In this document: one piece after another, positions 5,504 through 29,430 of the stretch
Position numbering within the stretch: the first letter of the stretch is position 1
Layout of the letters: each line of letters begins with the position of its first letter
Assembly (NCBI RefSeq): GCF_042660085.1
Contig: NZ_JBHSTI010000008.1
Span: 1,110,001 to 1,142,000 of the forward strand
Origin: Longivirga aurantiaca
GTDB lineage: Bacteria > Actinomycetota > Actinomycetes > S36-B12 > CAIYMF01
Reading direction: 5' to 3'
Length of the DNA: 32,000 nucleotides
The notes under the pieces: generated by a model
Databases searched by the model: none
What the model saw: only the letters and a program-made list of their open reading frames with translations
What the model was told of the DNA's origin: nothing
Program-made: the position numbers and the translations under genes

Positions 5504-6823
5504 TCACAGGCCGCTGGGCTCGGTCTCGTACTCGGGCTCGGTCGGGCGAGGTTCGTGGCGCAGGGGCACCAGGGCCGTCGTGGTGTCGAACCAGAGCAGC
5601 GCGTCGTAGCGCCCACCCATCCACGTCGGGACGTAGTTGCCGCTCTCGCGCGACGGGTCGTACACCACACCCACCGCGCGGTGCCCCGCCCACGTCGACA
5701 GCCAGGGGCCGGACCGGTCCTCGGGGAAGACGAGCGACGCCCGCCGGGGCAGGCACTGGTGCAGCACCCACTCGTGGCTTCCGGCGCGGGCCACCGGCAA
5801 CGGCATGACGCGCTCGGGCTCGCCCCAGCCGCCCGCGGCCAGCACCGAGCCGCGGTGCGAGGCGAACCCCACCAGCACCACGCCGTCCGACTCGTGCCTC
5901 TCGCGCACGAGCTGGCCGACGGTGACGAGGCCGGCACGGGCCATGTCGGTCGCACGGGCGTCGCCGACATGCGTGTTGTGCTCCCAGACGACGCCGGCCG
6001 AGCCCGGGCCGAGATGGCGCGCGATGCGATCGATCGTGCCCGCCATGTGGTGGTCGCGGACGTTCCACGACGCGCGGTCGCCGCGCACCATCGCGCGGTA
6101 GTAGCTCTCGGCGTCGGCCGCGGCCTCCGCGTTGCAGGCTGCGTCGAACGCCAACTCGTCGTCGTCCGAGCGGACGCCGACCCTGCGCCGCACCTCGGTC
6201 AGCAGCGCGACCACCTCGTCCTCGCACGACTCCGGGATCAGCCGGGCGGCGCGTGCATAGCGGTGCGGGTCCTCGCCGTACGGCATGAAGCACCGCCACG
6301 CGTTCCACGCCGTGGGCAGGGCCTCGGGGTCGTGCTGCCCGAGCCATGCCATGGTGGCGCGCAGCGAGTCCCAGAGCGAGTAGACGTCGAGCCCGTAGAA
6401 GCCGACGCGCCGCTCGAGCGGGCGACCGCGGTTCGTCTCGCGCAACCACACGAGGAACTCACCGACGTCGTGGTTGGCCCACATCCAGGTCGGCCACCGG
6501 GAGAAGCGGCCGAGGAGCCCCCGGACGTCGAGATCCTGGTCGTCCTGCCCGCGCACCCAACGGTTGATCCGCCAGCAGTCCGGCCAGTCGCCCTCGACGC
6601 CGATCCACGTGACGCCTCGCTCCTCGACGAGGCGGCGCGTGAGCTGCGCCCGCCAGGCGTAGAACTCGTGGGTGCCATGCGACGCCTCGCCGATGCAGAC
6701 GTAGCGCGCGTCACCGATCCGGGCCAGGAGCGGGTCGAGGTCGGCGGGCGTCTCCAGCGGGTGGGCGAGCGACCTGGCCTCGGCCGCAGCCGACTCGTAG
6801 GACTCGCCGGTGAACGTGGTCAT
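5504..6823 (-). CDS. Erythromycin esterase-like (Ere/ChaN-type) family protein, 439 aa
   Basis: Inner ATG at 6823 of track ORF 5504..8317: [23 protein letters not shown]...YVCIGEASHGTHEFYAWRAQLTRRLVEERGVTWIGVEGDWPD...VVWEHNTHVGDARAT. These motifs are recalled as typical of the erythromycin esterase family. ATGA overlap with the upstream gene stop (6820-6823), and a GAGGAGGGA Shine-Dalgarno inside the upstream gene. Confidence 0.8.
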   Translation of the reverse strand: MTTFTGESYESAAAEARSLAHPLETPADLDPLLARIGDARYVCIGEASHGTHEFYAWRAQLTRRLVEERGVTWIGVEGDWPDCWRINRWVRGQDDQDLDVRGLLGRFSRWPTWMWANHDVGEFLVWLRETNRGRPLERRVGFYGLDVYSLWDSLRATMAWLGQHDPEALPTAWNAWRCFMPYGEDPHRYARAARLIPESCEDEVVALLTEVRRRVGVRSDDDELAFDAACNAEAAADAESYYRAMVRGDRASWNVRDHHMAGTIDRIARHLGPGSAGVVWEHNTHVGDARATDMARAGLVTVGQLVRERHESDGVVLVGFASHRGSVLAAGGWGEPERVMPLPVARAGSHEWVLHQCLPRRASLVFPEDRSGPWLSTWAGHRAVGVVYDPSRESGNYVPTWMGGRYDALLWFDTTTALVPLRHEPRPTEPEYETEPSGL

Positions 6824-8130
6824 GGCCGTCCCTCCTCGATCGGTTCGTGTCCCCTCCGTCCCAGGTGGCGCACGAACCAGTCGCGTGCGAACGAGGCAGC
6901 CTGGGCCAATGTCCCCGGCTCCTCGAACAGGTGCGTCGCCCCGGGCACCACGACCAGCTCGGTCGGGCACCGCAGCCGGGCCTGCGCAGCGCGGTTGAGC
7001 TCGAGCACGGCCCGGTCGTCGCCACCGACGATCAGCAATGTCGGTGCCCGCACCGCGGCGAGCGCGTGACCGGCCAGATCGGGCCGCCCTCCGCGGCTCA
7101 CGACCGCGGCCACCCGCTCGGATCCGGCGGCGGCGACGAGCGCCGCGGCAGCCCCTGTGCTCGCACCGAAGTATCCGAGGCTCAGACCGTCGACCGCGGG
7201 CTGCTGCACGAGCCAGTCCGTCGCGGCGATGAGCCGTGCGGCGAGCGTCCCGATGTCGAACACCCGGGCGCGGTCCTGCTCCTCCTCGGGGGTGAGGAGG
7301 TCGATGAGCAGCGTCCCGAGCCCGGCAGCCTGCAGGACGTCGGCGACGTACCGGTTGCGCGGGCTGTGCCGGCTGCTTCCGCTGCCGTGCGCGAACACGA
7401 CCAGGCCAGGTGCCCCGGGCGGGATCACCAGATGGCCCTCGAGCCGGCAGCCGGCGACGGGGACGAGCACCTTCTCGTCGTACGCCGCGCCCTCGGTGCC
7501 GGCCGCCCTCAGCAGGGCGACCACCTCCTCGTCGGAGGTCGGTGAGAAGTCCCGGTAGTGGTTGCCGACCGCCGTGAACCCCGGCGGCTCGGCCAGGCAG
7601 ACGACCTCGTCGGCGTCGGGCAGCCGGTGCTCGACGCCCGGTGCGCCGACGGGCGCGGCGACGATCACGCGGCGAGCACCGAGGTGGCGGGCCACCAGGC
7701 AGGCGGCCCGCGCGGTCGACCCGGTGGCGATGCCGTCGTCGATCAGCAGAGCGATGCGGCCCGTGAGATCCAGGCGGGGCCGGCCGGGGCGGAACCGGCG
7801 CACGCGGTCCTCGAGCTCCGCGCGCTCGCGCGCCTCGACCCGGACGACGTCCTCGGGCCTGACGCCGGCGAGGCGCAGGATCTCCTCGTCGATGACCCGG
7901 ACGCCGTCCTCTCCGAGAGCCCCCATGGCCAGCTCCGGCTGGTAGGGGACGCCGAGCTTGCGCACGACGATCACGTCGAGCGGCGCCCCGAGCTCCCGCG
8001 CCACCTGAGCGGCGACCGGCACACCACCACGAGGGAGCCCGAGCACGACGAGGTCGGGGCCGCGGAACCGGGCCAGCTGCTGGGCCAGAAGACGACCGGC
8101 CTCGATACGGTCGGCGAACGCCACCATCAC
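6820..8130 (-). CDS. Fusion protein: N-terminal phosphoribosyltransferase domain + C-terminal dienelactone-hydrolase-like alpha/beta hydrolase, 436 aa
   Basis: ORF track. N-terminal half: [14 protein letters not shown]...[18 protein letters not shown] (PRPP-binding loop). C-terminal half: [17 protein letters not shown]...[14 protein letters not shown] (G-x-S-x-G nucleophile elbow)...LLIVGGDD...[10 protein letters not shown]. Confidence 0.85.
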
Positions 8131-8422
8131 GCACCTCCCGAGCGCGTCGCACGCGTCCGGCGCGGGGGCCGTGCGGCCTCGCCCGCACCTTCATTCTGGC
8201 ACCACCGAGCGGCGACATGCCCGCCCTCGCACGGGGATCCCGTGCGCCGACGAGCGCCTCAGCCGCCAGCACGGTGTGGTGGCGAGCTTCTCGCGCGCGC
8301 TCACCGAGGGCCTGCACGTCGACCAGACCCAGGCCGAGTTCGACGCGGCGCTCGACGCCTCGATCGCGAGCATCTTCCGCGCCTCGCTCACCTGACCCGG
8401 ACCAGCGGCCGGCATCGCACGC

Positions 8423-9301
8423 TCAACCGGTGGGCGGCGGGACGACCATCACCGGGCAGGCCGCGCCGTGGACCAGGGCGGCGGTCACCGAGCCCTGCCG
8501 CATCCCGAGGAAGTGGCCGCGTCCGTGGGCCCCGACCACGACGAGCTGAGCGGTCTGCGCTGCCTGCAGGAGCGCCGACGCCGGGTGCGCCTGGATCACG
8601 CGCATGTCGACCTCGAGGTCGGGGTAGTCGGCGCCGATCTCGTCCACCATCTGCGCGGCCAGCTGCTCGGCGCCCGCCTGCAGCTCGCGGGCCAGGTCGG
8701 GCGGTGGGAGGTAGATCCCGTAGCCGGTGGGGTTGAGGTCCTGCCATGCATGCACCATGAGCAGCCGCGAGCCGCGGCACGACGCCTCGTCGGCCGCAGC
8801 CCGGAGGGCGGCGTACGACGCCTTCGAGCCGTCGACGCCCACCGCGATGGGCCCGGTCGAACGATCAGCAGTCCCGTGCACGACCACGGCGGGGCAGTGC
8901 GCCTGCGCGCTCACGTGCCGGCTGACGGAGCCGAGCAGCACCTCGGCGACGCGCGAGCGACCGCGCGCTCCGACCACCACCATGCTCGCCTCCCCGCTCG
9001 CCGTCAGCATCGCCGACGCGGGATGCCCCGCGACGTGCTGGGCCGTGACCACCAGCTCCGGCCACGCGCGTGTCACGCGGGTGACTGCGTCGTCGACGTA
9101 CCCGGGGCGACCGCCCACGGTCGGGGTCGGGACCGCGGGAACGCCCGGCGTGACCGCCACCCAGTTGGGCTCGATCACGGTGAGCACGACGAGCGGCAGG
9201 CGGCGGAGCGCCGCCTCGTGGGCCGCCCAGTCCACGGCGGCGGTGGCTCCCGGGGACCCGTCCGTGCCGACGATGATCGGGAGTCTCGACCTGGTCATCA
9301 C
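8423..9301 (-). CDS. Tandem-domain universal stress protein, 292 aa
   Basis: ORF track. Two USP halves, each with the ATP-binding motif: VVVGARGRSRVAEVLLGSVSRHVSAQAHCPAVVV and LVVVGAHGRGHFLGMRQGSVTAALVHGAACPVMVV. GAGGAGG Shine-Dalgarno upstream of the ATG at 9301. Confidence 0.9.
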   Translation of the reverse strand: MMTRSRLPIIVGTDGSPGATAAVDWAAHEAALRRLPLVVLTVIEPNWVAVTPGVPAVPTPTVGGRPGYVDDAVTRVTRAWPELVVTAQHVAGHPASAMLTASGEASMVVVGARGRSRVAEVLLGSVSRHVSAQAHCPAVVVHGTADRSTGPIAVGVDGSKASYAALRAAADEASCRGSRLLMVHAWQDLNPTGYGIYLPPPDLARELQAGAEQLAAQMVDEIGADYPDLEVDMRVIQAHPASALLQAAQTAQLVVVGAHGRGHFLGMRQGSVTAALVHGAACPVMVVPPPTG

Positions 9302-9420
9302 GCACCTCCTCGAGGAGGTGGCGCCACCATCGGGAGCCGACGCGGGCGTCCTGCTCCTCTACCCCGATTCTGCGCCCGCCGACATGCGGATGCCACAGCA
9401 GGAGGGCTCGCAACCGCGTC

Positions 9421-9603
9421 GAGGCGCGTAGGTGGGTGGCGGATCCGTCGCAGGGCGCACGCTGGCTACCCGGGTAACCAGCGAGGCGCGTAGGTGGGTG
9501 GCGGATCCGTCGCAGGGCGCACGCTGGCTACCGGGGTAACCAGCGAGGCTCGTGGGTGAGTGCGGAATCTGTCGCAGAGCGCACGCTGGTTACCCGGGTT
9601 GGC
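9421..9603. repeat. REP-like palindromic repeat family: head-to-tail array of 3 units (62 + 62 + ~59 bp)
   Basis: Units 9421-9482 and 9483-9544 differ at a single position by hand alignment (GAGGCGCGTAGGTGGGTGGCGGATCCGTCGCAGGGCGCACGCTGGCTACCCGGGTAACCAGC). The third unit, 9545-9603, is diverged. Each unit contains a near-palindrome CGCTGGcTACCC/GGGTAaCCAGCG. The array lies between the tandem-USP start and the stop of the 9617..10558 gene. Confidence 0.9.
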
Positions 9604-9616
9604 GGGTGCGAGGCGG

Positions 9617-10558
9617 CTACTCCGCGGCCAGGGTGCGCAGCTCGGCGATGGCCTTGCCCGCAGTCCTGAGGTAGTACCACGGCCAGTCCTGGATGCGGTC
9701 GCCGAGCGCGTCGATCTGGTGTGCGCCCTCGGCCTTGTTCTCGCTCACGTACGACGTCATCGCGAAGGTGTTGCGGGCGATGACTCCGGCGGCGTCGTCG
9801 GGGAAGCCGGGCAGCCACGAGGAGGCCGCGGCGTCAGCGAGCTCCTGTGCGACGGCCGCCGAGGAGATGTAGCCGCGCGGAGGCTTGCCGCTGACCCAGT
9901 ACTCGAGGTGCGCGATGCCGATCAGCTCGTTGAGCGGCGACGGCGCGGAGGTGTCGCGGTGCTCCCGGGCGAACGCGAACATCTGCTCGTGGCTGCCGCT
10001 CCACTTCTCGCAGATGCCCTGCAGCGCCTGCTCGTGCAGGGCGAGGAACGACTGCCCGCCCGCCGCGACACCGCGGTCGAACCGGGCCCTTACCTCCGAC
10101 GGGCCGTACTGCAGACCACGGCCGAGGAGTACGGCGGTGCACCACGACAGGGGAGCGCTCGCCCACGGGGTGAGCGCAGGCTGCAGCACCCGCTCGGCCG
10201 CCTCGAGGTAGCCGAAGAACCCCTCGAACTTGCGGGCGCCGACCGTCTCGGCCATCCCGTGGCCGCGGATCGCCCAGCCGGCCTGCACGAGCGCCTGCGC
10301 GTAGACGGTCGAGGCGAACGGGTCGTCCTGCTTCGTGTCGTACCACGCCTGGATGCGGTCGAGGTCGGCCGCGTCGTTCATCCGCGTCAGCGCCGCGTGG
10401 ATGTCGTCGAGGCTCTCGGCACGGGCGGCGATGCCCTCGAACTGCGCGATCTCGCCCGCCTTGCCCGCCGCCAGGGCCTCGGTGACCGTCGCGATCCCGA
10501 GGTCGGGGCTCTCCACGAACCTGGTGCTCGGCTTGGACGTGCGCGAGAACAGACCCAC
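9617..10558 (-). CDS. Hypothetical all-helical cytoplasmic protein, 313 aa (possibly DUF4034-like; unverified recall)
   Basis: ORF track. Strong GC3 codon bias, no signal peptide and no TM segment. The motif ICEKWSGSHEQMFAFAREH resembles the K-W-G-G-S motif I recall for DUF4034-type proteins. No catalytic motif recognised. Confidence 0.7.
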   Translation of the reverse strand: MGLFSRTSKPSTRFVESPDLGIATVTEALAAGKAGEIAQFEGIAARAESLDDIHAALTRMNDAADLDRIQAWYDTKQDDPFASTVYAQALVQAGWAIRGHGMAETVGARKFEGFFGYLEAAERVLQPALTPWASAPLSWCTAVLLGRGLQYGPSEVRARFDRGVAAGGQSFLALHEQALQGICEKWSGSHEQMFAFAREHRDTSAPSPLNELIGIAHLEYWVSGKPPRGYISSAAVAQELADAAASSWLPGFPDDAAGVIARNTFAMTSYVSENKAEGAHQIDALGDRIQDWPWYYLRTAGKAIAELRTLAAE

Positions 10559-10616
10559 GACTTCCCCCTTCGATGTGCGGCCGATCGTAGGGCGCGGGCT
10601 CCGCTCAGGCGTGGTT

Positions 10617-10738
10617 CGGCGTACGTCGGGTGTCGAGCGTGTTCCGGGGCGCGCGCTCGGCGTACCCGGGTAACGGGAAAGGGGCGTAGCTGAGTGCCGA
10701 ATCCGTCCCAGAGCGCACGCTGGTTACCCGGGTAACGG
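10617..10738. repeat. REP-like repeat family: two adjacent units
   Basis: 10617-10675: GGCGTACGTCGGGTGTCGAGCGTGTTCCGGGGCGCGCGCTCGGCGTACCCGGGTAACG. 10681-10738: GGGGCGTAGCTGAGTGCCGAATCCGTCCCAGAGCGCACGCTGGTTACCCGGGTAACGG, with the perfect 14-bp palindrome GTTACCCGGGTAAC at 10723-10736. Confidence 0.85.
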
Positions 10739-10742
10739 CCGA

Positions 10743-10830
10743 TCAGTCGGTGGGGAGCGCGGGGCGGTGCATCACGGCCCAGGTGGGCGCGACCTCGACG
10801 CGGTCGTGGTAAGCCTTCGCGTCGCCGTCG
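10743..10830 (-). pseudogene. 3'-terminal stub of a PNPOx-like gene (paralogue of 21964..22287)
   Basis: The tail of track ORF 10743..11051 (...GDGDAKAYHDRVEVAPTWAVMHRPALPTD) matches the C-terminus of the 21964..22287 protein (DGDAHVEGDRMEVTPTWAVMHRPALAGD). 34 bp are identical (10756-10789 vs 21977-22010). Upstream of ~10830 the similarity is lost, and the ORF overlaps the start of the 10997 gene. Confidence 0.5.
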
Positions 10831-10996
10831 CCGCGACCTCGACCGCGCACCTCACGGGTTCCCGCCGTCGCATCGGGGTCGCCCAGCCTGCTGGCGGCGG
10901 ACGCCCGGACCGACGCGTGGGGCACCCCGGGCAAATGCCCGATGCGGCCCCGAGCCGGCGTCCCTAGCGTCGCGGCGAGGTCGGGGAGGCTCAACG

Positions 10997-13900
10997 ATGA
11001 TGGGACGAACAGTGCGGGGCAGTCGGGCACGGGGTCGTACGGCTGGATCACCTCTTCGTCGCGGCGTGGTGGGCGCCTGCGTCCTCGCCCTCACCGCGTC
11101 GTTGCTGTCGATGACAGGGGCAGGCAGCGCGGTGGGTGCCTCCCTTCCCGCGGCCGTGGTCGCACCTCAGGCCGTGGACGCCGCTGCTGCCGTCCCGGCC
11201 AACGTGACCGTCGGGCGAGGGCACGCCTGCGCCCTCATGGCGACCGGATACGTGTGGTGCTGGGGGCGCAACGACCGCGGCCAGCTCGGCTACCCGAGCG
11301 CGACGACCCCCGGCGAGCCGCGCCCGGTGCCCGGCATCTCCACGGCGGTGCAGGTGGTCGCCGGCGATCTGCACACCTGCGCCCGGCTCACCGATGGCAC
11401 GGTGAAGTGCTGGGGGGCCAACGGTTCGGGTCAGCTCGGCAACGCCTTGACCGTCGACAGCTCGGCGCCGGTCGCAGCGATTGGGCTCTCGGGGGTCACC
11501 GATCTCACGGCTGGACGGGCGCACACGTGTGCCGTCGCGAACGGCCTCGTCTCGTGCTGGGGATCGAACGGGTTCGGCCAGCTCGGGCTCGGCAGTGTGC
11601 GCGAAGCGCGCCTCGGCCTGACCCAGTTGGCGCAGTTCTATGCGATCGGCGTCGGTTCGAACGCCACGGACGACAACGGGGACCTCGTGCTCTCCGACGC
11701 AGCGACCAACGGCACGCTCGGCAGCGGATCGGTCGTCCGGTACGGCGACGACGGCGTGATCAAGTCGTTCTGGAGCATCCCCGGAAGCACTCTCGTAGGT
11801 GGCGTCGCAACCGCCCGCGACGGGTCGCGCACCTACGTCGCCAGCGCGTTCCCGGGTCAGGCCGTGGTCTGGGTGCTGTCCGGTACGACGACGATCGAAC
11901 GCACGTGGAGCCTGGTGAGCAGCGTCCCGGGCTGCGTGACTGCGAGCTGCAGCGTCGTCGGCCTGACCACCGACGCCAACGGCACGGTCTACGCCGCGGT
12001 TCAGCGGTTCGATGGGGCCGGCGTCTCTCGAGCCTCGTTCATCGCGTCGGCGTCGAAGGAGGGACTCCCGCTCGGCGTGACCGATGTGACCGCTCAGATG
12101 ACCGTCATCTCCGACGTCACCTGGGTCCCGGGGGCGAACCGGGGGACGGTGTGGGTGCTCGGTACCAACCTGGTCAACCCGTCGCCCTTCAACCCGTCAC
12201 CCACCCTGTCGTCCTTCGCCATCCCGGCCACCGCCGGCTCGTCCCTGGTCTTCCTCAACAAGAAGTCGGCGTACGCCGCGGTGGAGAGCTGCGTGCCCTC
12301 GGAGGATTACGTGCTGGCGGATCAGACGACGCTCAGCGGCACTGCCTTCTACCGCCACCGACACACGTACCCGCTCGTCAACAGCCTCCGCCTCGGAACC
12401 GCAGCGGACGGCCAGCTGCTGCTCTCGGCCGACTACTCCCAGGGCCGGCGTCTGGAGAACACCTTCACGACCAACCCTGCGGCCCCGGTGGACATCCAGA
12501 CCAACTACACCAACGAGACGCCTGCCGAGGTCGCAGACTGCGTGATGGTCGTGGACCCCGCGGCCTCGTCAACGCAGGCAGCCAGCGTGGTCTTCACGGT
12601 CCGGGGCAGCGCGGGCGATCTCACGGATCTCCGGAAGCCGTTGGACGCAACGGAGTCCGGTGATGGCGGCATCATCGTCTCCGACCCCTCGTACGCCGCT
12701 GCCAGCCCCGCGAGGCTCCAGCGCTTCAACGCGGTGGGCTCGGTCACTCAGTGGGGCCGGGTGCCGATCCGCACGATCCCGACGCCGCTGATGCCGTTGC
12801 AGGCCCTGCAGCCCGGGCAGGCTGCACCGACCATGAGCAGCGTGTTCGCGGGTGCGCATCACACGTGCGCTTCCGGCGTCGTGAACGGCCAGCCGACCAC
12901 GCTGTGCTGGGGCAGCAGCTCCTCCGGCCAGACGGGATGGCCCGCCTCGGGCGCGTCGGCCCTGCGCTTCGGCCTCCCTCCGTCGGACACCGGCGACCAG
13001 AGCAGCTTCCCGATCGCCATGCCCGTGATCGGCGCCGGAGTGGGCAGCGGCGGTCTGGCGCACACGTGCATCGCCCAGAACGGGTCGCCTCGTCAGATGA
13101 CCTGCTGGGGCGCCAACGACAGCGGCCAGACGCGGCTCAACACGGTCGAGGGCGACATCTGGCGGAACGGCGGCACTCCCACGACCGTGCCGGTGACCGA
13201 GCTGGACTCAGGCGACCTCACCACGTGCACGATCGAGTCCACCGACCTGAAGCGCGTGCAGTGCTACGGATCGGACGCTTACGGGCAGACCTCGGTGCGT
13301 CCGGGCGCGTGCCTGAACAACCTGGACTTCGTGCAGACGGCCGGCTGCCAGCAGGTCGGTGGAGCGATGCACATCTCCGCCGGGCCTACCACGACGTGCG
13401 CTGCGACCGCCACCGGCATCGTCTGCTGGGGCGACAACGCGTGGGGGACTCTGGCGACGTATGGCTCGCCTCTGGGCGCCGTCGGCGTCCCGCTCGAGGT
13501 GCCGAGCACGTTCATCGTGAGCGCCCCCGCGACGCTCGATGGAAGCCTCGTGGCGCGGTTCGGCACCAACCTGGACGCGCTCGACGCCACGACCGACGTG
13601 GTGCTCCGCGTCAAGGGATCGGCGAGTGCCCTGGCAAGCACGAAGAGTGTGTCGGCCGACCGTCGGACAGTGAGCATCAAGCCGGCAGCGCCACTCGTCG
13701 CCGGGCAGCAGTACGAAGTCGCAGTCAACACCGGCAGCGCCACAGCGCTCACCTCCGGCGGCCTGCCGCTGACCCCGTCCGTGGTGAGTGCCAGAGCCGC
13801 GACGGCGCTGGGTGACACCAGCCCGGCCAATACGGCGGCCTGGCCAAAGGTCAGCAGCAGCACAGCCCTGGGGGGCTCGTACGTGACGGAGCGGACGGCA

Positions 13901-14515
13901 GGAGCATCCGCGAAGTTCGCGTTCACGGGCAGCTCCGTCGCCCTGCTGACGCGCAAGGGGCCGAGCCAGGGCAAGGTCGTGGTCTCGGTCGGCGCGGTAT
14001 CCAAGACGTTGGACCTGTACTCCGCCACTGCCGTCAACCGGTTCAAGGTCGCCCTCACCGGTCTCGGCGCCGGCCCCCACACGCTGACGGTCAAGGTGCT
14101 GGGCACCCGCAACACCAGGTCGACGGGCACCTCGGTGGCGATCGACGGGTTCTCGGTGGGAGCGGTCACCTCGGCCACGCCGACCTTGACTCCTTCCTGG
14201 GCAGCTGTGTCCTCCTCGACCGCTTCGGCGAAGCGATACGTCCGCTCCCAGCAGGCAGGCGCCACGTACACGGTCACGTTCCGCGGCACACGCATCAACT
14301 GGCTGACGTTCGTAGGCCCCGACTTCGGTGACGCCAAGGTCGTGATCGACGGGAAGGCGAAGGGGACGTTCGCGCTCTACGCGACGGCCACGAAGGCCCG
14401 CACGGTCGCCTTCACGGGGCTGACCGACGCGGTGCACAAGCTGACCGTCACCGTCGCGGGCACGGGCACGGGCACCAAGGACTTCGTCGCAGTCGACGGT
14501 TGGACCGTCTCATGA
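10997..14515 (+). CDS. Giant secreted RCC1-repeat protein (1172 aa): signal peptide, 3 RCC1 blades, ~410-aa NHL-like insert, ~4 RCC1 blades, Ig-like domain, two tandem ~110-aa C-terminal beta-sandwich-like domains
   Basis: GGGGAGG Shine-Dalgarno 7 nt before the ATG at 10997. The N-terminus has an RR-containing basic region plus a hydrophobic core (SPLRRGVVGACVLALTASLL). RCC1 signatures occur about 7 times: GYVWCWGRNDRGQLG, GTVKCWGANGSGQLG, LVSCWGSNGFGQLG (nt 11201-11596), then TTLCWGSSSSGQTG, QMTCWGANDSGQT, VQCYGSDAYGQT, IVCWGDNAWGTL (nt 12830-13462). The C-terminal tandem domains at 13829-14188 and 14189-14512 align by eye (W..VSSST......YV......GA...F.F.G........GP..G...V..........DLY...). 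Confidence 0.9.
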   Translation: MMGRTVRGSRARGRTAGSPLRRGVVGACVLALTASLLSMTGAGSAVGASLPAAVVAPQAVDAAAAVPANVTVGRGHACALMATGYVWCWGRNDRGQLGYPSATTPGEPRPVPGISTAVQVVAGDLHTCARLTDGTVKCWGANGSGQLGNALTVDSSAPVAAIGLSGVTDLTAGRAHTCAVANGLVSCWGSNGFGQLGLGSVREARLGLTQLAQFYAIGVGSNATDDNGDLVLSDAATNGTLGSGSVVRYGDDGVIKSFWSIPGSTLVGGVATARDGSRTYVASAFPGQAVVWVLSGTTTIERTWSLVSSVPGCVTASCSVVGLTTDANGTVYAAVQRFDGAGVSRASFIASASKEGLPLGVTDVTAQMTVISDVTWVPGANRGTVWVLGTNLVNPSPFNPSPTLSSFAIPATAGSSLVFLNKKSAYAAVESCVPSEDYVLADQTTLSGTAFYRHRHTYPLVNSLRLGTAADGQLLLSADYSQGRRLENTFTTNPAAPVDIQTNYTNETPAEVADCVMVVDPAASSTQAASVVFTVRGSAGDLTDLRKPLDATESGDGGIIVSDPSYAAASPARLQRFNAVGSVTQWGRVPIRTIPTPLMPLQALQPGQAAPTMSSVFAGAHHTCASGVVNGQPTTLCWGSSSSGQTGWPASGASALRFGLPPSDTGDQSSFPIAMPVIGAGVGSGGLAHTCIAQNGSPRQMTCWGANDSGQTRLNTVEGDIWRNGGTPTTVPVTELDSGDLTTCTIESTDLKRVQCYGSDAYGQTSVRPGACLNNLDFVQTAGCQQVGGAMHISAGPTTTCAATATGIVCWGDNAWGTLATYGSPLGAVGVPLEVPSTFIVSAPATLDGSLVARFGTNLDALDATTDVVLRVKGSASALASTKSVSADRRTVSIKPAAPLVAGQQYEVAVNTGSATALTSGGLPLTPSVVSARAATALGDTSPANTAAWPKVSSSTALGGSYVTERTAGASAKFAFTGSSVALLTRKGPSQGKVVVSVGAVSKTLDLYSATAVNRFKVALTGLGAGPHTLTVKVLGTRNTRSTGTSVAIDGFSVGAVTSATPTLTPSWAAVSSSTASAKRYVRSQQAGATYTVTFRGTRINWLTFVGPDFGDAKVVIDGKAKGTFALYATATKARTVAFTGLTDAVHKLTVTVAGTGTGTKDFVAVDGWTVS

Positions 14516-17500
14516 GCACCGCAACCCGTGTCCGCCTCACCTCGAAGGGCTCCATGCCGATGTCTCGCTTCACCGCCCTCCTCTGCGTGGGTGTGATGCT
14601 GTCCCTCGGGCTGGGTGCGGCGTCCTCCTACTCCTCTGGCGCCGAGGCGGCGACCGCAACGGCGACCGCGGCGGTTGTCCCAGCGGCGGCACCGGCGCCG
14701 GGCAGCGAGTGCCTCGATGACGTGACCGGCGAGTCCGAGCCGTGCGACTTCGGGATGGAGCCGGTGCGCTTCCCGTCCGGTCGCACGATCGGCGAGTACG
14801 AGAGCGCGGTGCTGACCCGCAGCGCGGCCAACCGCGCCTCGACCGTGTCGATGAACGACTTCACCACCGGGGTCCTGCTCGGCTCCTGCGTCCCTGACGT
14901 CGCATCGTGCGGCCTGGACAACCGCGTCCGAGTCGGCGACGACGGCCCGTTGTACACGGACGCGACCCCGGTCCTCCCGTCGTCGGCGTCGACCACCGTC
15001 GGTGACACCGCCGTGGCGAAGGCCGACTTCAATGGCGACGGCCGCGAGGACGTCGTCACTGCGGCGCTGTGCCCCGTGCTGGGAGGCGGCACGCCGAGCG
15101 AGATCTGCCTTCGGGCGTACGACCCTGACACGGACTCGTGGTCGTCGTGGAGCCCGACGGGTCTGGTGGCGGACTCGGTGAAGGCCGTGGGACGCATCAA
15201 GCTCGCTGCCGGACGGATCGCGCAGACGACGGCGAAGGTGACGGGAGCGTCCTTCACCACGTCGGCTGACGGCTCGAACCTCCTCATGCGCCTCACGACG
15301 GACATCCCCCACCGCCTCACCACGAGCGATGCGCTGCGGTTCGACGCGGCCGGCGTGGCCGAGCTTGCTTCCGCGCTGTGCCTTCCGGCCGATGACGACG
15401 GCACCGAGCCGTTGTGCGCGGGAGATCTCGCCGAGGGGCTGTGGCCGATCGAGTCGATCGCGACCGATCGCCTCTCCTTCGTCGTGGCACTGGGGACGCT
15501 TCAGGACGCGAGCGCCACGGCGACCTGCCCTCCGGAGGGCTTCCGCTGCCTCGCGGACGGCACCCGTGAGCCCTTGGACTGGAGCAGCGACACCGGGTTC
15601 GGCGTCACGGGGACCAACCAGGGCCTCGCCGTGGCCTGGGTCGCGCCTTCGGCCTCGGTGCAGCTCGCGACGTTCATCGTCCGACTGGGCACGACGGCGC
15701 CGTTCTCTCTCAGCGACGTCCACTCCGTCGGTGTGAGCACAGGTGCCCGACAGCCGCTCGACGTCGTGACGGGGGACTTCAACGGGGGAGCCCCCGACGA
15801 GATCGCAGTCGGCTTCGGCAGCACCTGCACCGGCCTTGCCTGCCTGCGCGTGCGCATCTTCCGCTGGAACGACTCCAAGCAGCTGGTCCCTGTCGGAGCG
15901 GCCAACGCACCCGCGGATGCTCCGAAGATGTCCGGAAACGCGAATCTGACCGTGTCGTCCGTCTCCCTCGCGTCCGGGCGGCTCACCAAGGCTGCCGGGA
16001 CCAACCTCGACGGCGACGACCTGCTCGTCGCCGTCCAGAGCACCAGCGGAACGATCGGGTGCCCGGTGCTGCAGGCGTGCATGGCCAGGTACGCCATCAC
16101 GTACGACGTCGCAGGGGACTTCGTCCCGAAGGCAGCTGCAACCACGCTGATCGAGACGGGCAGCGAGGGTCTGGTCGCTTCCCGGTACTCGTTCGTGGCC
16201 GCCGCCGCCGACTTCGACGGTGACGGCATGGACGACCCGGTCATCGGGAGGACCACGACCCAGCTCCTCGGCACTACCGAGAGCCGGGCCGCCTTCACGG
16301 TGATCACGACCCTGTCGTCGACAGGCACCCGCCTGACGTTCAACGGGGACGACGACATGCGCGCTGTCGGTGTCGGCGGCTCAGGACAGCTGGCGCTCGC
16401 AGCCGGGCAGGTCGGGTCTCTCGAGGACGCGAGCAGCCAAGGCTTCCCGAACGCGATCAACCCCGACATCGTCCTCGCGTGGACCTGCGTAGACACGGCC
16501 TCGTGCGGAGCTTCGGCGAGCGGCTCCAGCGTCGCCATCCTGCCGATCGCCGTGAAGATCCAGGCGACGCCTGAGTTCTTCCCCAAGGGCAAGGACAAGC
16601 TCAGCCCGAGCGACGACGGCGGCATCCCGAGCGTCCTGCCCGCGGCGCCGCTCCCTGCGACGTACAACGCGATCACGAGCGAGGCGACGCACGTGGCGCT
16701 CGCCCTGCCCGACCTGGATGCGGACAGCCAGACGCTGGGGACGCCTGTCACCTACGTGACCGTCGGCGAGGTCCGGCCCCTCATGATCCTGCGCTCGCCG
16801 CCCGTCCACTTCGACGCGTTCCCGGCGCTCATCACGAACGACGGCAAGGTCTCCTTCACCGAGACCCGAGACACCAACGGGTGCTTCGGCGCGAAGACTC
16901 CGTCCGACTGCGACGTCGCCACCGTGTACTCGTCGACGTCGACGCTCACCAGCTCGATCGCAGGAAGCATCAACAACTCGTGGGGCATCGGGGGATCGGT
17001 CGGCTTCAACACATGGTTCGGCGATACCAAGGAGACGAAGGCCGGCGTCACGAAGTGCCAGACCGGTGTCTGCGCCGAGCTGACCGTCCTGCTGGAGACC
17101 GAGTACAACGGGGAGCAGGCCGACACCACCAAGGCCGGCACCAACTTCACGTACTCGTTCAGCAAGACCGCTCTCGCCGGCTCCGACGAGGTTCTCGCCT
17201 TCACCGCAGCGACCGAGACGACCGAGTACCCGATCTACCCCGGCACGTCCGTCTTCGGTGGCGAGCTCGAGCCGGGGCGGTACGTCCGCGTCGACAGCCC
17301 CGTCCAGTCGACGCTGGCATGGCGCAGCGCGACCGACCCGGAGATCACCTCGAGCGGCTGGCAGCACTCGGTGCCGGGCAACATCCTCTCCTACCCCAAG
17401 TCCGCGAACACGCTCCCGACCGACACGAAGGCGGTCAAGGAGGCGGAGAAGATCGGCCCGCAGACCGTGCGGATCACCACGACCGGCGATCACGGATACA

Positions 17501-25099: not shown

Positions 25100-25700
25100 C
25101 GGGCAGTGCAGCGTGGCGACGGAGGTGGGCGGCAGTGGTCGAGTGCTCCAGCAGCCCTCGAGATCGTCGATCGCGTGCACGCCCTGGGCCGAGCTCAACC
25201 GCCCGCTGCAGGCGCGGGCCGGCGTCCTCACGGGCGAGGCTGTCGCGAGCCTGAACGCCACCGACCAGCGGTTCGTCACGGGCGACCTCGTCAACACCGC
25301 GAGCCGGCCGGCGCCCTCGCGGCGCTCGACGCCCTCAAGGCCGAGCAGGGTGCGGAGTGGTACGAGCAGGGTGCGGAGTGGAAGCAGCTGCAGTTCGTCA
25401 CGTGGTTCGCACACGCGAGGACCTACGTCCTGCTGCTGTCGGGGGACTCCGCCGCTGCTTCCGTGCGCGACGTGCGCGACAGGTGGCACGACGGAGGGCT
25501 GCCGCTCGACCACGCGTACGCCGTGCTGGTGCTCGCACGCGTGCTGCCGGCGGGCGGCGTGCCGGACGAGCACATCGGCGAGGCCCGAGCCCACCTCGTG
25601 GGGCTCGGGGCAGTGTCGCTGCTGCGCCTGATCGACGCGGCCCTGGAGTCCGCGCGGTCGGCCCAGCTCGTTGCGGCTCCGGCGGCTCCGGCGGCTGCGG
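25100..25700 (+). pseudogene. Frameshifted, internally deleted remnant of a class III adenylate/guanylate cyclase-ATPase-TPR type regulator
   Basis: Cyclase-like sequence is split over two frames. AALEIVDRVHALG sits in the 25058 frame (from nt 25151). AELNRPLQARAGVLTGEAVASLNATDQRFVTGDLVNTASR sits in the 24906 frame (nt 25188-25307) and matches the recalled cyclase pattern R.G..TGE...G....GD.VN.A.R. From ~25313 the reading switches back to the first frame with a helical C-terminal tail (WFAHARTYVLLLSGD...LLRLIDAALESAR). There is no N-terminal catalytic half and no P-loop. Confidence 0.45.
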
Positions 25701-25702
25701 CG

Positions 25703-25858
25703 ACGCAGGTGGGTGGGAAACGTGTTGCGGGGCGCACGCTCGGCTTACCCGGGTAACGAGCGTGCGGTAGAGCGCACGCTGGTTACCCGGGTAACGAGCG
25801 TGGGGCGAAGCTGAGTGCGGAATCCGTCGCAGAGCGCACGCTGGTTACCCGGGTAACG
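25703..25858. repeat. REP-like repeat family: array of ~3 units (one truncated)
   Basis: Units at ~25703-25760, 25761-25797 and 25798-25858. Long near-palindromes are present, e.g. CACGCTgGTTACCC/GGGTAACgAGCGTG, with perfect GTTACCCGGGTAAC at 25782-25795 and 25844-25857. The terminal residues of track ORF 25058..25756 are encoded by this repeat. Confidence 0.88.
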
Positions 25859-25863
25859 GCCGA

Positions 25864-25968
25864 TCAGTCGGTGGCGAGCGCGGGGCGGTGCACCACGGCC
25901 CAGGTGGTGGCGATCTCGATGCGGTCGAGCTTGGCGGCCAGGTCCTCGAGCGGTACGGCGATGCTCAT
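25864..25968 (-). pseudogene. PNPOx-like paralogue with an in-frame ~219-bp internal deletion (34 codons left)
   Basis: MSIAVPLEDLAAKL|DRIEIATTWAVVHRPALATD keeps the first 14 and last ~20 residues of the 107-aa protein at 21964..22287. The upstream leader 25969-26033 is near-identical to 22288-22352. Confidence 0.55.
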
Positions 25969-26033
25969 GCCCGCAGCCTCAGGAGTCCGGGGCGTGCGAC
26001 CGACGGACTCGCGCTCTCGGTGTGAGCGTTCTC

Positions 26034-26084
26034 GGCGTACGTCGTGCTGGATCGCGTCGGAGCGAGCGCGATCCGGCACGGGGT
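26034..26084. repeat. REP-like repeat family unit (degenerate second half)
   Basis: GGCGTACGTCGTGCTGGATCGCGTCGG... matches the first ~27 nt of the units at 22353 and 27117. The remainder is strongly diverged. Confidence 0.5.
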
Positions 26085-26275
26085 TCCCGTGGCGGACGAC
26101 CCGCTGGACGGACGACTCCTCGGCGAGAGGAGGCCGATCTGCCCACCTGCGCGACACCCTGCTCCGCGCGGACGATGCTGGCGTTGCGACCCGGCATCTC
26201 GTCGACCTCGATCTGGCCACCTGCCGACGGCTCCAGCGCCGGGCGGGAGCTCGTCACCGGCTGAGAGGACCTCCG

Positions 26276-27112
26276 ATGTGCCGCTGGTTCGTCTACCGAG
26301 GAGCGCCCCTGCGCACCAGCGAGCTGCTGCTGCATCCGGTGCACTCGATCGTCGCGCAGTCACTGAACTCGCCGCTCGGCGCAGAGCCCGTGAACGGTGA
26401 CGGGTTCGGATTCGGCTGGTATCCCGTGGACGGTGACGGTCCGCCCGGGCTGTTCCACAGCATCGAGCCGGCCTGGCACGACCGGAACCTGCGCTCGCTG
26501 GCCGAGGCCGTGGTGTCGCCGCTGTTCTTCTGCCATGTGCGCGCCGCAGCCGGGCCGCCGATCCAGCAGACCAATTGCCACCCGTTCCGCAACGACGGCT
26601 GGCTCTTCATGCACAACGGCGGCATCGCGGACTTCGATCGCGTCAAGCGCGACCTCGTACTCGCCGTCGACCCCGATCTCTACCCGCTCATGCTGGGCAC
26701 GACCGATTCCGAGGTGCTCTTCCACCTCGCGCTCACCCTCGGCCTGCGCGACGACCCCGTCGGCGCGATAGCGCGCGCGATCGCGTTCGTCGAACGGGTC
26801 GGTCACGAGCACGACGTGCGGTTCCCGTTCCAGGGCAGCATCGCAACGACGGACGGCGACTCGGTCTGGGCGTTCCGCTACTCGTCGCAGGGGCGGTCGC
26901 GCTCGCTGTTCCACTCGACCGACATCTCCGACCTGCGCACGATGTACCCGGACGAGTCGCGGCTCTCCCTCTTCTCCGACGACGCGCGCGTGATCGTGTC
27001 GGAGCCCATCAACGACCTGCCCGGCGCGTTCCTCGAGGTGCCCGAGGCGTCGGTGGCGATCCTCGACGCGGCGGGCTACCGGCACGCCGCCTTCGCGCCC
27101 GCCGGGTCCTGA
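26276..27112 (+). CDS. Class II (Ntn-type) glutamine amidotransferase, EgtC/YafJ-like, 278 aa
   Basis: Inner ATG at 26276 (GAGAGGA upstream) of track ORF 25871..27112. MCRWFVYRGAPLRTSELLLHPVHSIVAQSLNSPLGAEPVNGDGFGFGWYP has the N-terminal Met-Cys (catalytic Cys after Met removal) and the NGDGFG.GWY motif typical of class II GATase domains. HVRAA...NCHPF...WLFMHNG is also present. Confidence 0.88.
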   Translation: MCRWFVYRGAPLRTSELLLHPVHSIVAQSLNSPLGAEPVNGDGFGFGWYPVDGDGPPGLFHSIEPAWHDRNLRSLAEAVVSPLFFCHVRAAAGPPIQQTNCHPFRNDGWLFMHNGGIADFDRVKRDLVLAVDPDLYPLMLGTTDSEVLFHLALTLGLRDDPVGAIARAIAFVERVGHEHDVRFPFQGSIATTDGDSVWAFRYSSQGRSRSLFHSTDISDLRTMYPDESRLSLFSDDARVIVSEPINDLPGAFLEVPEASVAILDAAGYRHAAFAPAGS

Positions 27113-27116
27113 GCAC

Positions 27117-27228
27117 GGCGTACCTGGTGCTGGATCGCGTCGTGGGGCGCGCTCGTCACCCGGGTAGGCCGTGCGGCGGGTAGGGGGCGGCGAGCGCGCG
27201 TCGTGGGGAGCGCGCTCGCGCTCGGGCG
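27117..27228. repeat. REP-like repeat family: one good unit plus one degenerate unit
   Basis: 27117-27170: GGCGTACCTGGTGCTGGATCGCGTCGTGGGGCGCGCTCGTCACCCGGGTAGGCC. ~27190-27228: GCGCGCGTCGTGGGGAGCGCGCTCGCGCTCGGGCGTGG resembles the second half of a unit. Both lie immediately after the amidotransferase stop. Confidence 0.7.
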
Positions 27229-29373: not shown

Positions 29374-29430
29374 GTCGTACCTGAGCGGGGATCCCGTCGT
29401 GGAGCGAACGCTGGGTACCCAGGTAGCGGG
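29374..29430. repeat. REP-like repeat family unit with a variant palindromic core
   Basis: GTCGTACCTGAGCGGGGATCCCGTCGTGGAGCGAACGCTGGGTACCCAGGTAGCGGGGG aligns with the family consensus. Its core is the perfect 12-bp palindrome CTGGGTACCCAG (29411-29422) instead of GTTACCCGGGTAAC. It lies just after the lipoprotein stop. Confidence 0.7.

Follow-up and report, generated by a model that had tools for sequence, protein, structure and literature searches.

Tandem duplications with REP elements at their join points are known in Salmonella, and Streptomyces chromosomes contain amplifiable or deletable units flanked by direct repeats. Recombination between paralogous genes is modeled as a Campbell-type single crossover or as unequal crossing-over. 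The locus described here was analyzed as a 32,000-nt window of the chromosome of Longivirga aurantiaca (Sporichthyaceae). Its palindromes resemble the REP/BIME of Enterobacteria and Pseudomonas in being short, G+C-rich, imperfect, and strictly intergenic. Both are multi-copy and frequently arranged in tandem at a constant period (62 nt here), and both are located at the join points of deletions or duplications between related genomes. In contrast to REP/BIME, the window family is actinobacterial (Sporichthyaceae) with a sequence of its own, its two sub-types intergrade, all copies in the region share a single orientation, and no RAYT transposase was seen in the window.

The locus also resembles the islands that integrases insert at the 3' ends of tRNA or protein genes, with an intact gene, a displaced direct 3' fragment kilobases away, and a perfectly conserved 34-nt core. 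Unlike those islands, the window lacks an integrase, an excisionase, and a tRNA, the relatives show no presence or absence of the whole unit, and the composition is not foreign. The repeats are also off the island/core junctions: the ancestral gene order runs on through the right repeat. The likeness to direct-repeat recombination between paralogues consists of an ~3.9-kb segment between two directly oriented copies of a gene plus its upstream region, a single composite-looking copy in the sister lineage, an order that is circularly permuted relative to the outgroup, and later decay of redundant copies. The locus differs from that system in a repeat identity of only 84-93%.

We consider it fairly probable that the two 126-nt repeats of this locus do not delimit a mobile island but are traces left by homologous recombination among paralogous gene copies and REPs. 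The rearrangements would then be ordinary genome plasticity in a recombination-prone stretch of the chromosome.

Repeats and PNPOx-like gene copies

The features of the window are the following.

9422-9600, plus strand: REP array of three 62-nt units, palindrome CGCTGG[C/T]TACCCGGGTAACCAGCG
9617-10558, minus strand: orphan gene, 313 aa, without family assignment, absent from the sister lineage
10618-10736, plus strand: REP array of about two units, followed by a GGCCGA spacer (10737-10742); part of the left repeat
10743-10833, minus strand: left PNPOx-like relic, 30 codons ending in GDGDAKAYHDRVEVAPTWAVMHRPALPTD plus the stop
10997-14515, plus strand: RCC1-repeat giant, 1172 aa, signal-peptide-like N terminus
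14512-19227, plus strand: FG-GAP-repeat giant, ~1572 aa
19322-21838, minus strand: LAL-type regulator, AAA_16/AAA_22 plus GerE HTH
21964-22287, minus strand: intact PNPOx-like gene, the LAL-linked copy, 107 aa, identified by ORF and protein identity
22245-22392, no strand: second repeat, left copy, the gene's 5' 43 nt plus 105 nt upstream (U)
22353-22405, plus strand: hybrid REP, putative deletion junction
22425-23702, minus strand: EamA-type permease fused to a cNMP-binding domain
23758-24873, minus strand: MppP-like class I/II aminotransferase
25151-25663, plus strand: relic of a guanylate-cyclase/AAA_16 gene of 1167 aa
25703-25857, plus strand: REP array of about three units, with GGCCGA (25858-25863); part of the right repeat
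25864-25968, minus strand: right PNPOx-like relic, 34-codon in-frame remnant (MSIAVPLEDLAAKL joined to DRIEIATTWAVVHRPALATD, then the stop)
25926-26073, no strand: second repeat, right copy, gene 5' end plus upstream (U'); contains a REP at 26034-26086
26126-26261, plus strand: GCS2 carboxylate-amine ligase relic, C-terminal aa 329-374
26276-27112, plus strand: class II (EgtC-like) glutamine amidotransferase, right flank

The first-pass annotation had noticed two direct repeats, and these are homologous copies of a REP plus a gene 3' end. Positions 10681-10806 and 25802-25927 match without gaps and with exactly 9 mismatches; they lie in direct orientation, 15.1 kb apart, and are 93% identical over 126 nt. 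The similarity continues over 156 nt with 18 mismatches (10651-10806 and 25772-25927) and, if one 38-nt indel is allowed, back to ~10618 and 25703. Each copy is made up, as proposed, of a 62-nt REP unit that ends with the palindrome GTTACCCGGGTAAC, the spacer GGCCGA, and the stop plus ~20 codons of a minus-strand gene. The reported core shared with the intact gene (10756-10789 and 21977-22010) is perfect and exactly 34 nt long.

Of that gene, the window has one intact copy and two relics. The intact product is 100% identical to the L. aurantiaca protein that NCBI names 'pyridoxamine 5'-phosphate oxidase family protein [Longivirga aurantiaca]', and it matches Pfam PF01243 and TIGR03618, both under curated cut-offs. 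The right relic joins the gene's 3' 62 nt to its 5' 43 nt across a 219-nt internal deletion; it is thus more than a 3' end, and cyclase and GCS2 relics adjoin it. The left relic adjoins the orphan gene within a 1.45-kb segment that is absent from the sister lineage, and no recognizable REP is found at its right junction (10834-10859).

The repeats could have arisen independently if a mobile REP had inserted twice downstream of paralogous gene ends, the coding likeness being paralogue conservation. The same REP family is frequent in the region (12 copies), and the last 20 codons of the gene family are strongly conserved across Actinomycetes. Against this idea, the REP units beside the two relics are identical at 59/62 positions compared to 76-84% among other family members, the two relics share an identical 6-nt spacer and all of the 12 nt that precede the stop (12/12), their variable gene termini agree at 12/13 positions, and the similarity runs on through a second upstream REP unit. 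These segment identities effectively refute an independent origin, which we regard as extremely improbable, and indicate a copied rather than a convergent segment.

The 12 REP copies in the window are all intergenic and on the plus strand, and nearly every intergenic spacer has at least one REP-like palindromic element in this shared orientation. The palindrome GTTACCCGGGTAAC occurs 7 times in the window versus 0 expected. Five units or arrays were folded against shuffled sequences, and four gave z values of -2.3 to -4.0; the array of the left repeat (10648-10742) gave -0.55. The sequences form two sub-types that grade into each other, and no Rfam family matched in the window. In E. coli, REP/BIME clusters are associated with recombination (PMC3184786).

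Gene order in related lineages

All relatives are metagenomic contigs, in which misassembly is possible at repeats, and no single contig covering both ends was recovered among them. The sister lineage is represented by contigs L029 and L020, which are 99.6% identical across a 5.5-kb overlap and ~90-91% identical to the window in nucleotide sequence. It was rebuilt from three independent samples (L020, L029, and L037). Its gene order is Usp–REP–giant pair–LAL–PNPOx–GCS2–amidotransferase, and neither flanking repeat is present. L029 matches the window in two blocks (509-1511 to 8409-9411 and 1597-10004 to 10860-19261), and the 85-nt gap between them holds one REP alone; the left repeat, the orphan gene, and both REP arrays are missing. 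L020 likewise has two blocks (3-8578 to 13731-22301 and 9870-10867 to 26147-27142), with an intact GCS2 gene between them and without the right repeat, the permease, the aminotransferase, and the cyclase relic.

The window and the sister lineage cease to be homologous at REPs on both sides, at 9412 on the left and 27142 on the right. The L029 match ends at 9411, adjoining the array at 9422-9600, which separates the start of the Usp gene from the stop of the orphan gene and forms the left edge of the 1.45-kb indel. On the right, homology ends at a REP after the amidotransferase (27117-27166). In L037, which is 97.2% identical to L020, the PNPOx-upstream REP is fused straight to the REP downstream of the amidotransferase, and 2.2 kb are missing.

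A different order, cyclase(+)–REPs–PNPOx(-)–GCS2(+)–REPs–permease(-)–aminotransferase(-), is found in L031 and 11 further contigs, from which the giant genes are absent. The cyclase relic, REP array, PNPOx relic, and GCS2 relic of the window are colinear with it, and the array at 25703-25857 is orthologous to the REPs of the L031 cyclase/PNPOx spacer. The cyclase relic retains aa 148-200 (25151-25307) and aa 1087-1167 (25421-25663) of the L031 protein, with ~2.7 kb missing. GCS2 is intact in both L020 and L031. The window permease and aminotransferase are 90% and 91% identical in amino acid sequence to those of L031, and the LAL regulator is 92% identical to that of the sister lineage. The gene orders of the sister lineage and L031 therefore make the permease, aminotransferase, and cyclase native neighbors of the PNPOx-like gene. 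The right repeat lies within the ancestral synteny cyclase–REP–PNPOx–GCS2 and is therefore not an island/core junction.

These comparisons bear on the proposal that 10681-25927 is a 15-kb accessory unit that entered or could leave a resident PNPOx-like gene by recombination between the repeats, carrying the giants, the LAL regulator, the intact PNPOx copy, the permease, the aminotransferase, and the cyclase relic. The cargo genes are as the first-pass annotation named them. The repeats are genuine and lie in direct orientation with 93% identity across 126 nt; the tRNA/tmRNA search of the window gave no match, and no annotated ORF in it has an integrase or transposase domain. Contig L036 has a Usp orthologue (78% aa identity) directly downstream of an intact PNPOx gene and no giants, and two separate deletions could formally turn a window-like state into the sister arrangement. 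As one repeat-bounded unit, however, the island fails. In the sister lineage, the same Usp and amidotransferase genes enclose giants, LAL, and PNPOx but neither repeat, ancestral synteny extends on both sides of the right repeat, the permease and aminotransferase are native neighbors, and the predicted empty site, a single PNPOx-like gene between the orphan gene and the amidotransferase, was not found in that form among the relatives. The sister and L031 orders have already weakened this proposal, and we judge it improbable. Repeat-bounded presence/absence polymorphism does exist. The variable parts are two smaller segments (9412-10859, 1.45 kb, and ~22302-26032), each with one repeat in it, and not the 15-kb unit. 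What stands of the earlier interpretation is the homology of the repeats, the lineage restriction of the giants, and homologous recombination as the shaper of the region in place of site-specific integration, the machinery for which is absent.

Composition and the giant-gene module

The spot GC values reported for individual 60-nt lines are correct, and the GC deviation they pointed to is confined to the giant genes. These have GC 0.685-0.698, GC1 0.59-0.62, and GC3 0.88-0.90 versus 0.90-0.97 in the flanks. The dip arises because GC1 is low (the proteins are rich in Thr, Ser, Asn, and Lys) and not through GC3. The FG-GAP giant gene is the only strongly deviant part of the window. The composition of 19.3-25.9 kb is flank-like (GC 0.723 over 19.3-24.9 kb versus 0.728-0.733 in the flanks), which also argues against a single 15-kb unit.

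Both giant proteins are secreted by annotation (RCC1-repeat and FG-GAP). The RCC1 gene and the next two genes (FG-GAP and LAL) form a conserved module, in which an ATGA start/stop overlap joins the FG-GAP gene to the RCC1 gene. The pair is lineage-restricted: a set of 5.8 billion proteins contains only 4 full-length clusters, a rarity that had favored an accessory unit. To the left of the module, four lineages (window, L029, L028, and L025) differ from one another; to its right (LAL–PNPOx), they are constant.

The giants and LAL alone (~10790-21976, 11.2 kb) might have inserted into the PNPOx-like 3' end by a single crossover in the 34-nt core, leaving a displaced 3' stub at the left and a restored intact gene at the right. 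The perfect core common to the left relic and the intact copy, the variable left flank beside a constant LAL–PNPOx side, and the Usp–PNPOx adjacency without giants in L036 are in its favor. The flanks are also swapped: the left relic has a REP-type terminus with a sister-like body, and the intact copy has a LAL-type terminus with a different body. However, the sister module adjoins Usp with no stub, and the stub is absent from L028 and L025 as well. The REP array and terminus of the left relic are of the cyclase-side type (93% identical to the right copy) rather than those of an L036-like Usp-side gene, the between-lineage divergence of the giants (78-91% nucleotide identity) tracks that of neighboring genes, GC3 is host-like, and a recombinase is absent. 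This insertion is therefore unlikely, although a less distant prospect than the 15-kb unit.

Probable recombination among gene copies and REPs

The differences between the window and its relatives map to the PNPOx copies and the REPs. Under the favored reading, recombination among paralogues and REPs, the right relic (25864-25968) would be the decayed resident copy, still in its ancestral place within cyclase–REP–PNPOx–GCS2; of these three genes only fragments are left. The intact copy (21964-22287) is linked to the gene for the LAL regulator and those for the two giant secreted proteins. Together with its two REP units, the left relic (10743-10833) would have been duplicated incompletely (~0.2 kb) from the REP array and 3' end of the right copy; against this origin, the Usp/PNPOx adjacency in L036 fits a former PNPOx gene at the site of the left relic. 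With these assignments, the 126-nt repeats would therefore be paralogous relics that by chance lie 15.1 kb apart.

Segment-wise comparison is consistent with exchange between copies. The left relic matches the right copy at 24/25 positions of the terminus and downstream sequence, and the intact copy matches the sister lineage at 22/25. The core is the same in the left relic, the intact copy, and the sister lineage; past it, the sister lineage is nearer to the left relic (23/27) than to the intact copy (19/27). Recombination between intact-type and right-type copies would be expected to give this pattern, an argument based on 27-44 nt in a gene whose sister/intact-copy identity is uneven along its whole length.

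An additional direct repeat, missed by the first-pass annotation, pairs 22245-22392 with 25926-26073 (148 nt, 93%). It encloses the segment that is truly variable. RecA-type homologous recombination between the directly oriented PNPOx copies could have gained or lost the ~3.9-kb permease–aminotransferase–cyclase-relic segment. The order permuted relative to L031, together with the duplicated block of gene 5' end and upstream sequence, is what a tandem duplication or an insertion by single crossover would be expected to leave. Recombination between directly oriented REPs may likewise account for the loss of GCS2 in the window and of GCS2 plus the amidotransferase in L037, and redundant duplicates would decay afterwards through deletion. 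The hybrid REP at 22353-22405 combines the two REPs between which GCS2 lies in L031: its left half resembles the one in the PNPOx/GCS2 spacer and its right half the one downstream of the permease. This identifies it as the probable junction of an ~1.5-kb deletion by which this copy lost GCS2.

Repeat structure and gene copies

The first-pass annotation described a 15-kb island (10681-25927) bounded by direct repeats with about nine mismatches by hand alignment. An ungapped comparison of the two repeats gives exactly 9 mismatches in 126 nt. A repeat search of the window returned a longer pair, 10651-10806 and 25772-25927 (156 nt, 88%), and the similarity of both repeats reaches ~10618 and ~25703 once one 38-nt indel is allowed. 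Each repeat copy has three parts: a 62-nt unit with the palindrome GTTACCCGGGTAAC at its end, the spacer GGCCGA, and the stop and last codons of a small gene on the minus strand. The palindrome has seven occurrences in the window at ≤2 mismatches (expected, 0). The repeats and the three copies of the small PNPOx-like gene are located as follows.

Direct repeats and gene copies in the window
10681-10806: left 126-nt repeat
25802-25927: right 126-nt repeat
10743-10833, minus strand: left relic of the PNPOx-like gene
21964-22287, minus strand: intact copy
25864-25968, minus strand: right relic
22245-22392 and 25926-26073: second direct repeat, 148 nt, 93%, gene 5' end plus 105 nt of upstream DNA

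The product of the intact gene is identical to a Longivirga aurantiaca (Sporichthyaceae) protein that NCBI names PNPOx family protein. Domain matches to the 107-aa protein fall below the curated cut-offs, both for PF01243 (E 0.0033, 18.2 bits, cut-off 28.1) and for TIGR03618 (27 bits, cut-off 79). The perfect core reported between the left stub and the intact gene was confirmed as an exact 34-nt match (10756-10789 = 21977-22010) that is not extendable. The right relic is 34 codons in frame, reading MSIAVPLEDLAAKL up to its internal junction and DRIEIATTWAVVHRPALATD from there to the stop; the 3' 62 nt of the gene are joined to the 5' 43 nt, and 219 nt are missing. Direct repeats at 21966-22054 and 25866-25927 also pair the intact copy with this relic. 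With the second direct repeat and the 34-codon right relic, a segment of ~3.9 kb is enclosed between the intact copy and this relic.

The left and right copies share 93% identity, and their REP units are alike at 59/62 positions compared to 76-84% among other REPs of the family. These data identify the left copy as a copied segment rather than an independent REP insertion. The left relic keeps 91 nt of the gene compared to 62 nt in the right relic, and the copy therefore predates the internal deletion in the right copy. The 12-nt string CGCGACCTCGAC occurs twice, at 10789-10800 inside the left relic and at 10833-10844 exactly where homology to the gene stops, and the pair may represent microhomology at the point where this relic was truncated.

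The locus in related lineages

Genomic contexts were gathered through homologues of the amidotransferase, the RCC1 giant, and the PNPOx-like gene, together with one DNA-pattern scan of metagenomes for the conserved core of the PNPOx-like gene that gave a single 1.4-kb contig, L037. The source samples are SRR22840553 for L020, ERZ22157947 for L029, Ga0075163 for L037, ERZ28593169 for L031, SRR30183947 for L028, and ERR14847238 for L025. A sister lineage is represented by contigs from two different samples, L029 (ENA) and L020 (Logan), which are 99.6% identical across a 5.5-kb overlap and 90-91% identical to the window. Its gene order is HepT–Usp–REP–RCC1–FG-GAP–LAL–PNPOx–GCS2–amidotransferase–REP–PTA, where LAL is the regulator (window 19322-21838, minus strand) and GCS2 is a carboxylate-amine ligase gene. 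On the left side, L029 509-1511 corresponds to window 8409-9411 and L029 1597-10004 to window 10860-19261, with one REP within the 85 nt separating the two L029 blocks. The window segment 9412-10859 is missing in the sister lineage and holds three REP units, a 313-aa orphan gene, two REP units, and the left relic. On the right side, L020 3-8578 corresponds to window 13731-22301 and L020 9870-10867 to window 26147-27142. An intact GCS2 lies between these L020 blocks, and ~1.2 kb of it is lost in the window. The sister lineage is without the permease, the aminotransferase, the cyclase relic, the REP array, and the right relic. It has neither repeat, and its giant-gene module lies between the same Usp and amidotransferase genes. 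The left relic is present in L030, a contig 99.4% identical to the window. The match to the sister lineage stops at 8409, at which point that lineage has its HepT toxin gene; the left flank of the window at 4726-9301 carries two Usp genes, an erythromycin-esterase-family gene, and a phosphoribosyltransferase/dienelactone-hydrolase fusion.

Contig L031 comes from a relative without the giants. In window orientation its order is HD-GerE(+)–cyclase/AAA_16(1167 aa, +)–REPs–PNPOx(-)–GCS2(+)–REPs–permease(-)–aminotransferase(-)–REPs–PTA(+), and this gene order is also found on 11 further contigs with the same product and no giants. The aminotransferase and permease are 91% and 90% identical to those of the window at the amino acid level. 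The L031 cyclase matches the window at 25151-25307 (aa 148-200) and 25421-25663 (aa 1087-1167), and its GCS2 matches at 26126-26261 (aa 329-374). The cyclase/PNPOx spacer of L031 already holds REPs that align with the right array of the window. Because it is colinear with L031, the block of cyclase relic, REPs, PNPOx relic, upstream DNA, and GCS2 relic is a decayed resident locus that is ancestral on both sides, and therefore no island/chromosome junction can pass through it. Short-word BLAST found no informative homology at 24874-25150, between the aminotransferase upstream region and the cyclase, or at the internal cyclase junction. HepT on the left and PTA on the right frame the locus in both the sister lineage and L031. 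These data define a single conserved chromosomal neighbourhood with variable content.

Pfam and NCBIfam scans confirmed the gene content assigned earlier, namely the RCC1 and FG-GAP giants, the LAL-type regulator, the MppP-like aminotransferase, and the EamA/cNMP permease. The MppP-like PLP enzyme and the EamA exporter with its cNMP-binding domain are a conserved pair (window 22425-24873, minus strand; L031 5757-8355), and the cyclase gene adjoining the pair is decayed in the window. The aminotransferase scores 257 bits with TIGR04462, under the 450 cut-off. Together the two proteins may synthesize an amino-acid-derived compound and export it, with cyclic nucleotides exerting control.

The composition of the region was compared with its flanks. 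GC is 0.733 in the left flank, 0.691 in the giants, 0.723 at 19.3-24.9 kb, and 0.728 in the right flank. The giants have a GC1 of 0.59-0.62 compared to 0.63-0.83 in other genes, owing to their high content of Thr, Ser, Asn, and Lys. In GC3 they are close to the lowest flank values (0.88-0.90 compared to 0.90-0.97), and the lowest value is that of LAL (0.87). The tetranucleotide distance peak is limited to 14-19 kb, and the composition at 19.3-25.9 kb is flank-like. By the criterion set in the first-pass annotation, 10.8-22 kb as a whole does not deviate; the deviation is confined to the two secreted repeat-protein genes.

The region fails all four tests of a site-specific integrated island. 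First, no recombinase lies nearby. As the first-pass annotation had noted, no integrase, transposase, or tRNA was seen: neither Pfam nor NCBIfam detected an integrase or transposase domain in the sizeable ORFs at 9.6-27.1 kb and in the flanks, tblastn with the transposase of another relative's contig (L036) gave no match, and no tRNA/tmRNA or Rfam family was found in the window. Second, the repeats do not mark element/chromosome junctions; the right repeat is inside the conserved cyclase–REP–PNPOx–GCS2 order and the left repeat is inside the variable 1.45-kb segment. Third, presence or absence of the whole unit was not seen among the metagenomic contigs. No empty site with one repeat was among the contexts recovered, and the sister lineage keeps the central 11 kb without both repeat-bearing ends. 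The enclosed genes had all been taken as accessory cargo, and the permease, aminotransferase, and cyclase natively adjoin PNPOx and GCS2 in L031. Fourth, atypical composition does not extend across the unit and is a property of the two giants via GC1.

The main value of these data is a correction. Good direct repeats, a gene 3' end, and no integrase mimic the signature of an island, and the relatives show that the repeats are gene-duplicate relics and that part of the 'cargo' is native. The repeats merit annotation as pseudogene relics, and the 15-kb 'island' should not be annotated. The locus shows the ordinary plasticity of a bacterial genome, here in a poorly studied lineage, and the finding opens no new question. 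It provides a clean small example from a little-studied actinobacterial family that is useful for annotating pseudogenes, REPs, and 'islands' in high-GC genomes.

REP elements, indel junctions, and the origin of the gene copies

A REP profile built from eight window units identified 12 REPs in the 32-kb window, all intergenic.

REP positions in the window, all on the plus strand
9422-9600: three units
10618-10736: two units
22353-22405: REP
25703-25857: three units
26034-26086: REP
27117-27166: REP
29374-29426: REP

The same profile search found more copies in the orthologous spacers of L020, L029, L031, and L037. The palindromes are 14-24 nt. DNA folding beats shuffled sequences in 4 of the 5 units or arrays tested (z -2.3 to -4.0), and the array at the left repeat (10648-10742) shows no advantage over them (z -0.55). 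The elements are REP/BIME-like: they are hairpin-forming imperfect palindromes, save for the left-repeat array, and they are multi-copy and exclusively intergenic as counted within the window and the spacers of the relatives. No RAYT (IS200/IS605-like Y1 transposase) gene lies within the window. The REPs at 29374-29426, 27117-27166, 26034-26086, and 22353-22405 are a second sub-type with arms GGCGTACCTGGTG and CACCCGGGTAGGCC. This sub-type and the GTTACCCGGGTAAC sub-type have the central motif CGCGTCGCAGAGxGCGC in common, and both are in a single orientation.

A review links REP clusters to recombination (PMC3184786). Homology between the window and the sister lineage stops at REPs at 9412 and 27142. 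L037 (JGI) is 97.2% identical to L020 across LAL, PNPOx, and the upstream region, where its upstream REP is joined straight to the REP downstream of the amidotransferase, followed by the PTA upstream region. L037 is without 2.2 kb (GCS2 and amidotransferase), and the junction lies inside the REP (L037 1253-1404 compared to L020 8574-8700 and 10825-10962). This difference is a clean REP-to-REP indel. In the window, the REP at 22353-22405 lies 105 nt past the intact copy; its left half is of the PNPOx/GCS2-spacer type, and its right half and the sequence beyond match the L031 REP that lies downstream of the permease. A REP-to-REP event would have deleted GCS2 from the side of the intact copy. 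Altogether, four indels were mapped, either between the window and relatives that are 85-91% identical to it or between L037 and L020 (97%). Two of the four have junctions inside REPs, another ends at the PNPOx-like copies, and the last is edged by a REP array on a single side. A possible REP right-arm remnant at 10846-10862, which would make the 1.45-kb indel REP-to-REP, was rejected since the resemblance was not convincing once realigned.

The PNPOx-like gene copies were compared segment by segment.

Agreement among PNPOx-like gene copies (left, left relic; right, right relic; sister, the single gene in L020)
12 nt downstream plus first 13 nt: left and right 24/25; intact and sister 22/25; left and intact 8/25
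34-nt core: left, intact, and sister identical; right with 3 changes
27 nt beyond the core: left and sister 23/27; intact and sister 19/27; left and intact 18/27
5' 52 nt: intact and right identical; sister differs from both at 8 positions (counted from the alignment)

The single gene in L020 has a terminus like the intact copy and a body of the left/right type, a composite call based on few sites, with identity to the intact copy uneven along the whole gene. The PNPOx-like proteins (window 21964-22287 and L020 8240-8581) are 80% identical compared to 92% for LAL and 96% for the amidotransferase, which suggests gene conversion or exchange among paralogues. An assignment of the intact copy's body to the right-copy type was dropped, since the internal deletion in the right copy leaves 17 nt to compare and these do not discriminate.

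The most economical reading suggested by these sequence comparisons is two-paralogue ancestry with a recombinant gene in the sister lineage. A common ancestor would have carried one LAL-linked paralogue, now the intact copy, and one REP/cyclase-linked paralogue. The latter would have become the right relic, and the left relic would be a partial copy of it. The single sister gene would have arisen by recombination of both paralogues within the conserved core with deletion of the 3.9 kb. The reverse route, in which a circular L031-type segment would have inserted into an S-type gene (that of the sister lineage), is equally compatible. Relative to L031, the window order permease–aminotransferase–cyclase–PNPOx–GCS2 is circularly permuted. 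We infer that this permutation and the duplicated block of gene 5' end and upstream DNA were probably left by a tandem duplication or by a single-crossover insertion, after which redundant copies would have been lost. As in paralogue-mediated duplication/deletion, the variable segment is bracketed by directly oriented copies in the window, and the relative keeps one composite copy, as judged from few sites. The locus fits a history of recombination between directly repeated paralogues and REPs, then pseudogene decay. We consider it unlikely that the uniformly oriented REPs, present in nearly every spacer here, and the PNPOx-like gene are portable homology sites, maintained by selection, for integron-like swap, loss, and regain of cassettes without a dedicated recombinase. 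If this were true, the Sporichthyaceae cassettes concerned would be GCS2, GCS2 with the amidotransferase, the permease with the aminotransferase, the orphan gene, and perhaps the giants.

The giant genes and their surroundings

The giants (10997-19227, plus strand) are an RCC1-repeat protein of 1172 aa and an FG-GAP protein of ~1572 aa, both with signal-peptide-like N-termini, and the stop and start codons of their genes overlap (ATGA). Full-length homologues of the pair form only four clusters among 5.8 billion proteins; all four come from contigs of this narrow clade, where the two genes invariably occur as this translationally coupled pair. The giant pair of a 79%-identical lineage (L025 1-9692) follows genes for HNH/ScoMcrA, NERD, Fic, ADP-ribosylglycohydrolase, and a NERD-helicase. 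This set is defence-island-like and is a fourth, unrelated left context for the giant module.

The 313-aa orphan ORF (9617-10558, minus strand) has a host-like GC3 of 0.95, is flanked on both sides by REP arrays, and is missing in the sister lineage. The protein had no Pfam, NCBIfam, or PDB-sequence match. A contig scan of species-representative genomes found relatives only in Micromonospora, Amycolatopsis, and Phytohabitans at ≤42% identity, and the flank gene is therefore itself an orphan and not core.

A smaller insertion may be considered in which the giants and LAL entered at the conserved core, and the left relic and the intact copy are the repeat pair. L036 (NCBI MAG GCA_050249075.1) carries an intact PNPOx gene with a Usp orthologue (78% aa) immediately downstream and an IS256-type transposase upstream, and a PNPOx gene may therefore once have stood beside the Usp gene of the window. 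This adjacency keeps the smaller insertion alive. However, the sister lineage, L028 (another relative's contig), and L025 have no stub, the REPs and terminus of the left relic are of the cyclase-side type, and the giants diverge among lineages (78-91% nt) in step with the genes next to them.

Contigs L021, L022, and L038 were rejected as empty sites since they have single genes in common with the window in rearranged contexts. The distant relative L021 matches window 1-4727 and 26276-27099, and L022 matches window 5024-5450. In distant relatives, the amidotransferase is upstream of the far-left genes of the window, a 2-oxoacid dehydrogenase/AMP-ligase block and a small Usp. This placement indicates that the whole 27-kb stretch is reordered between lineages.
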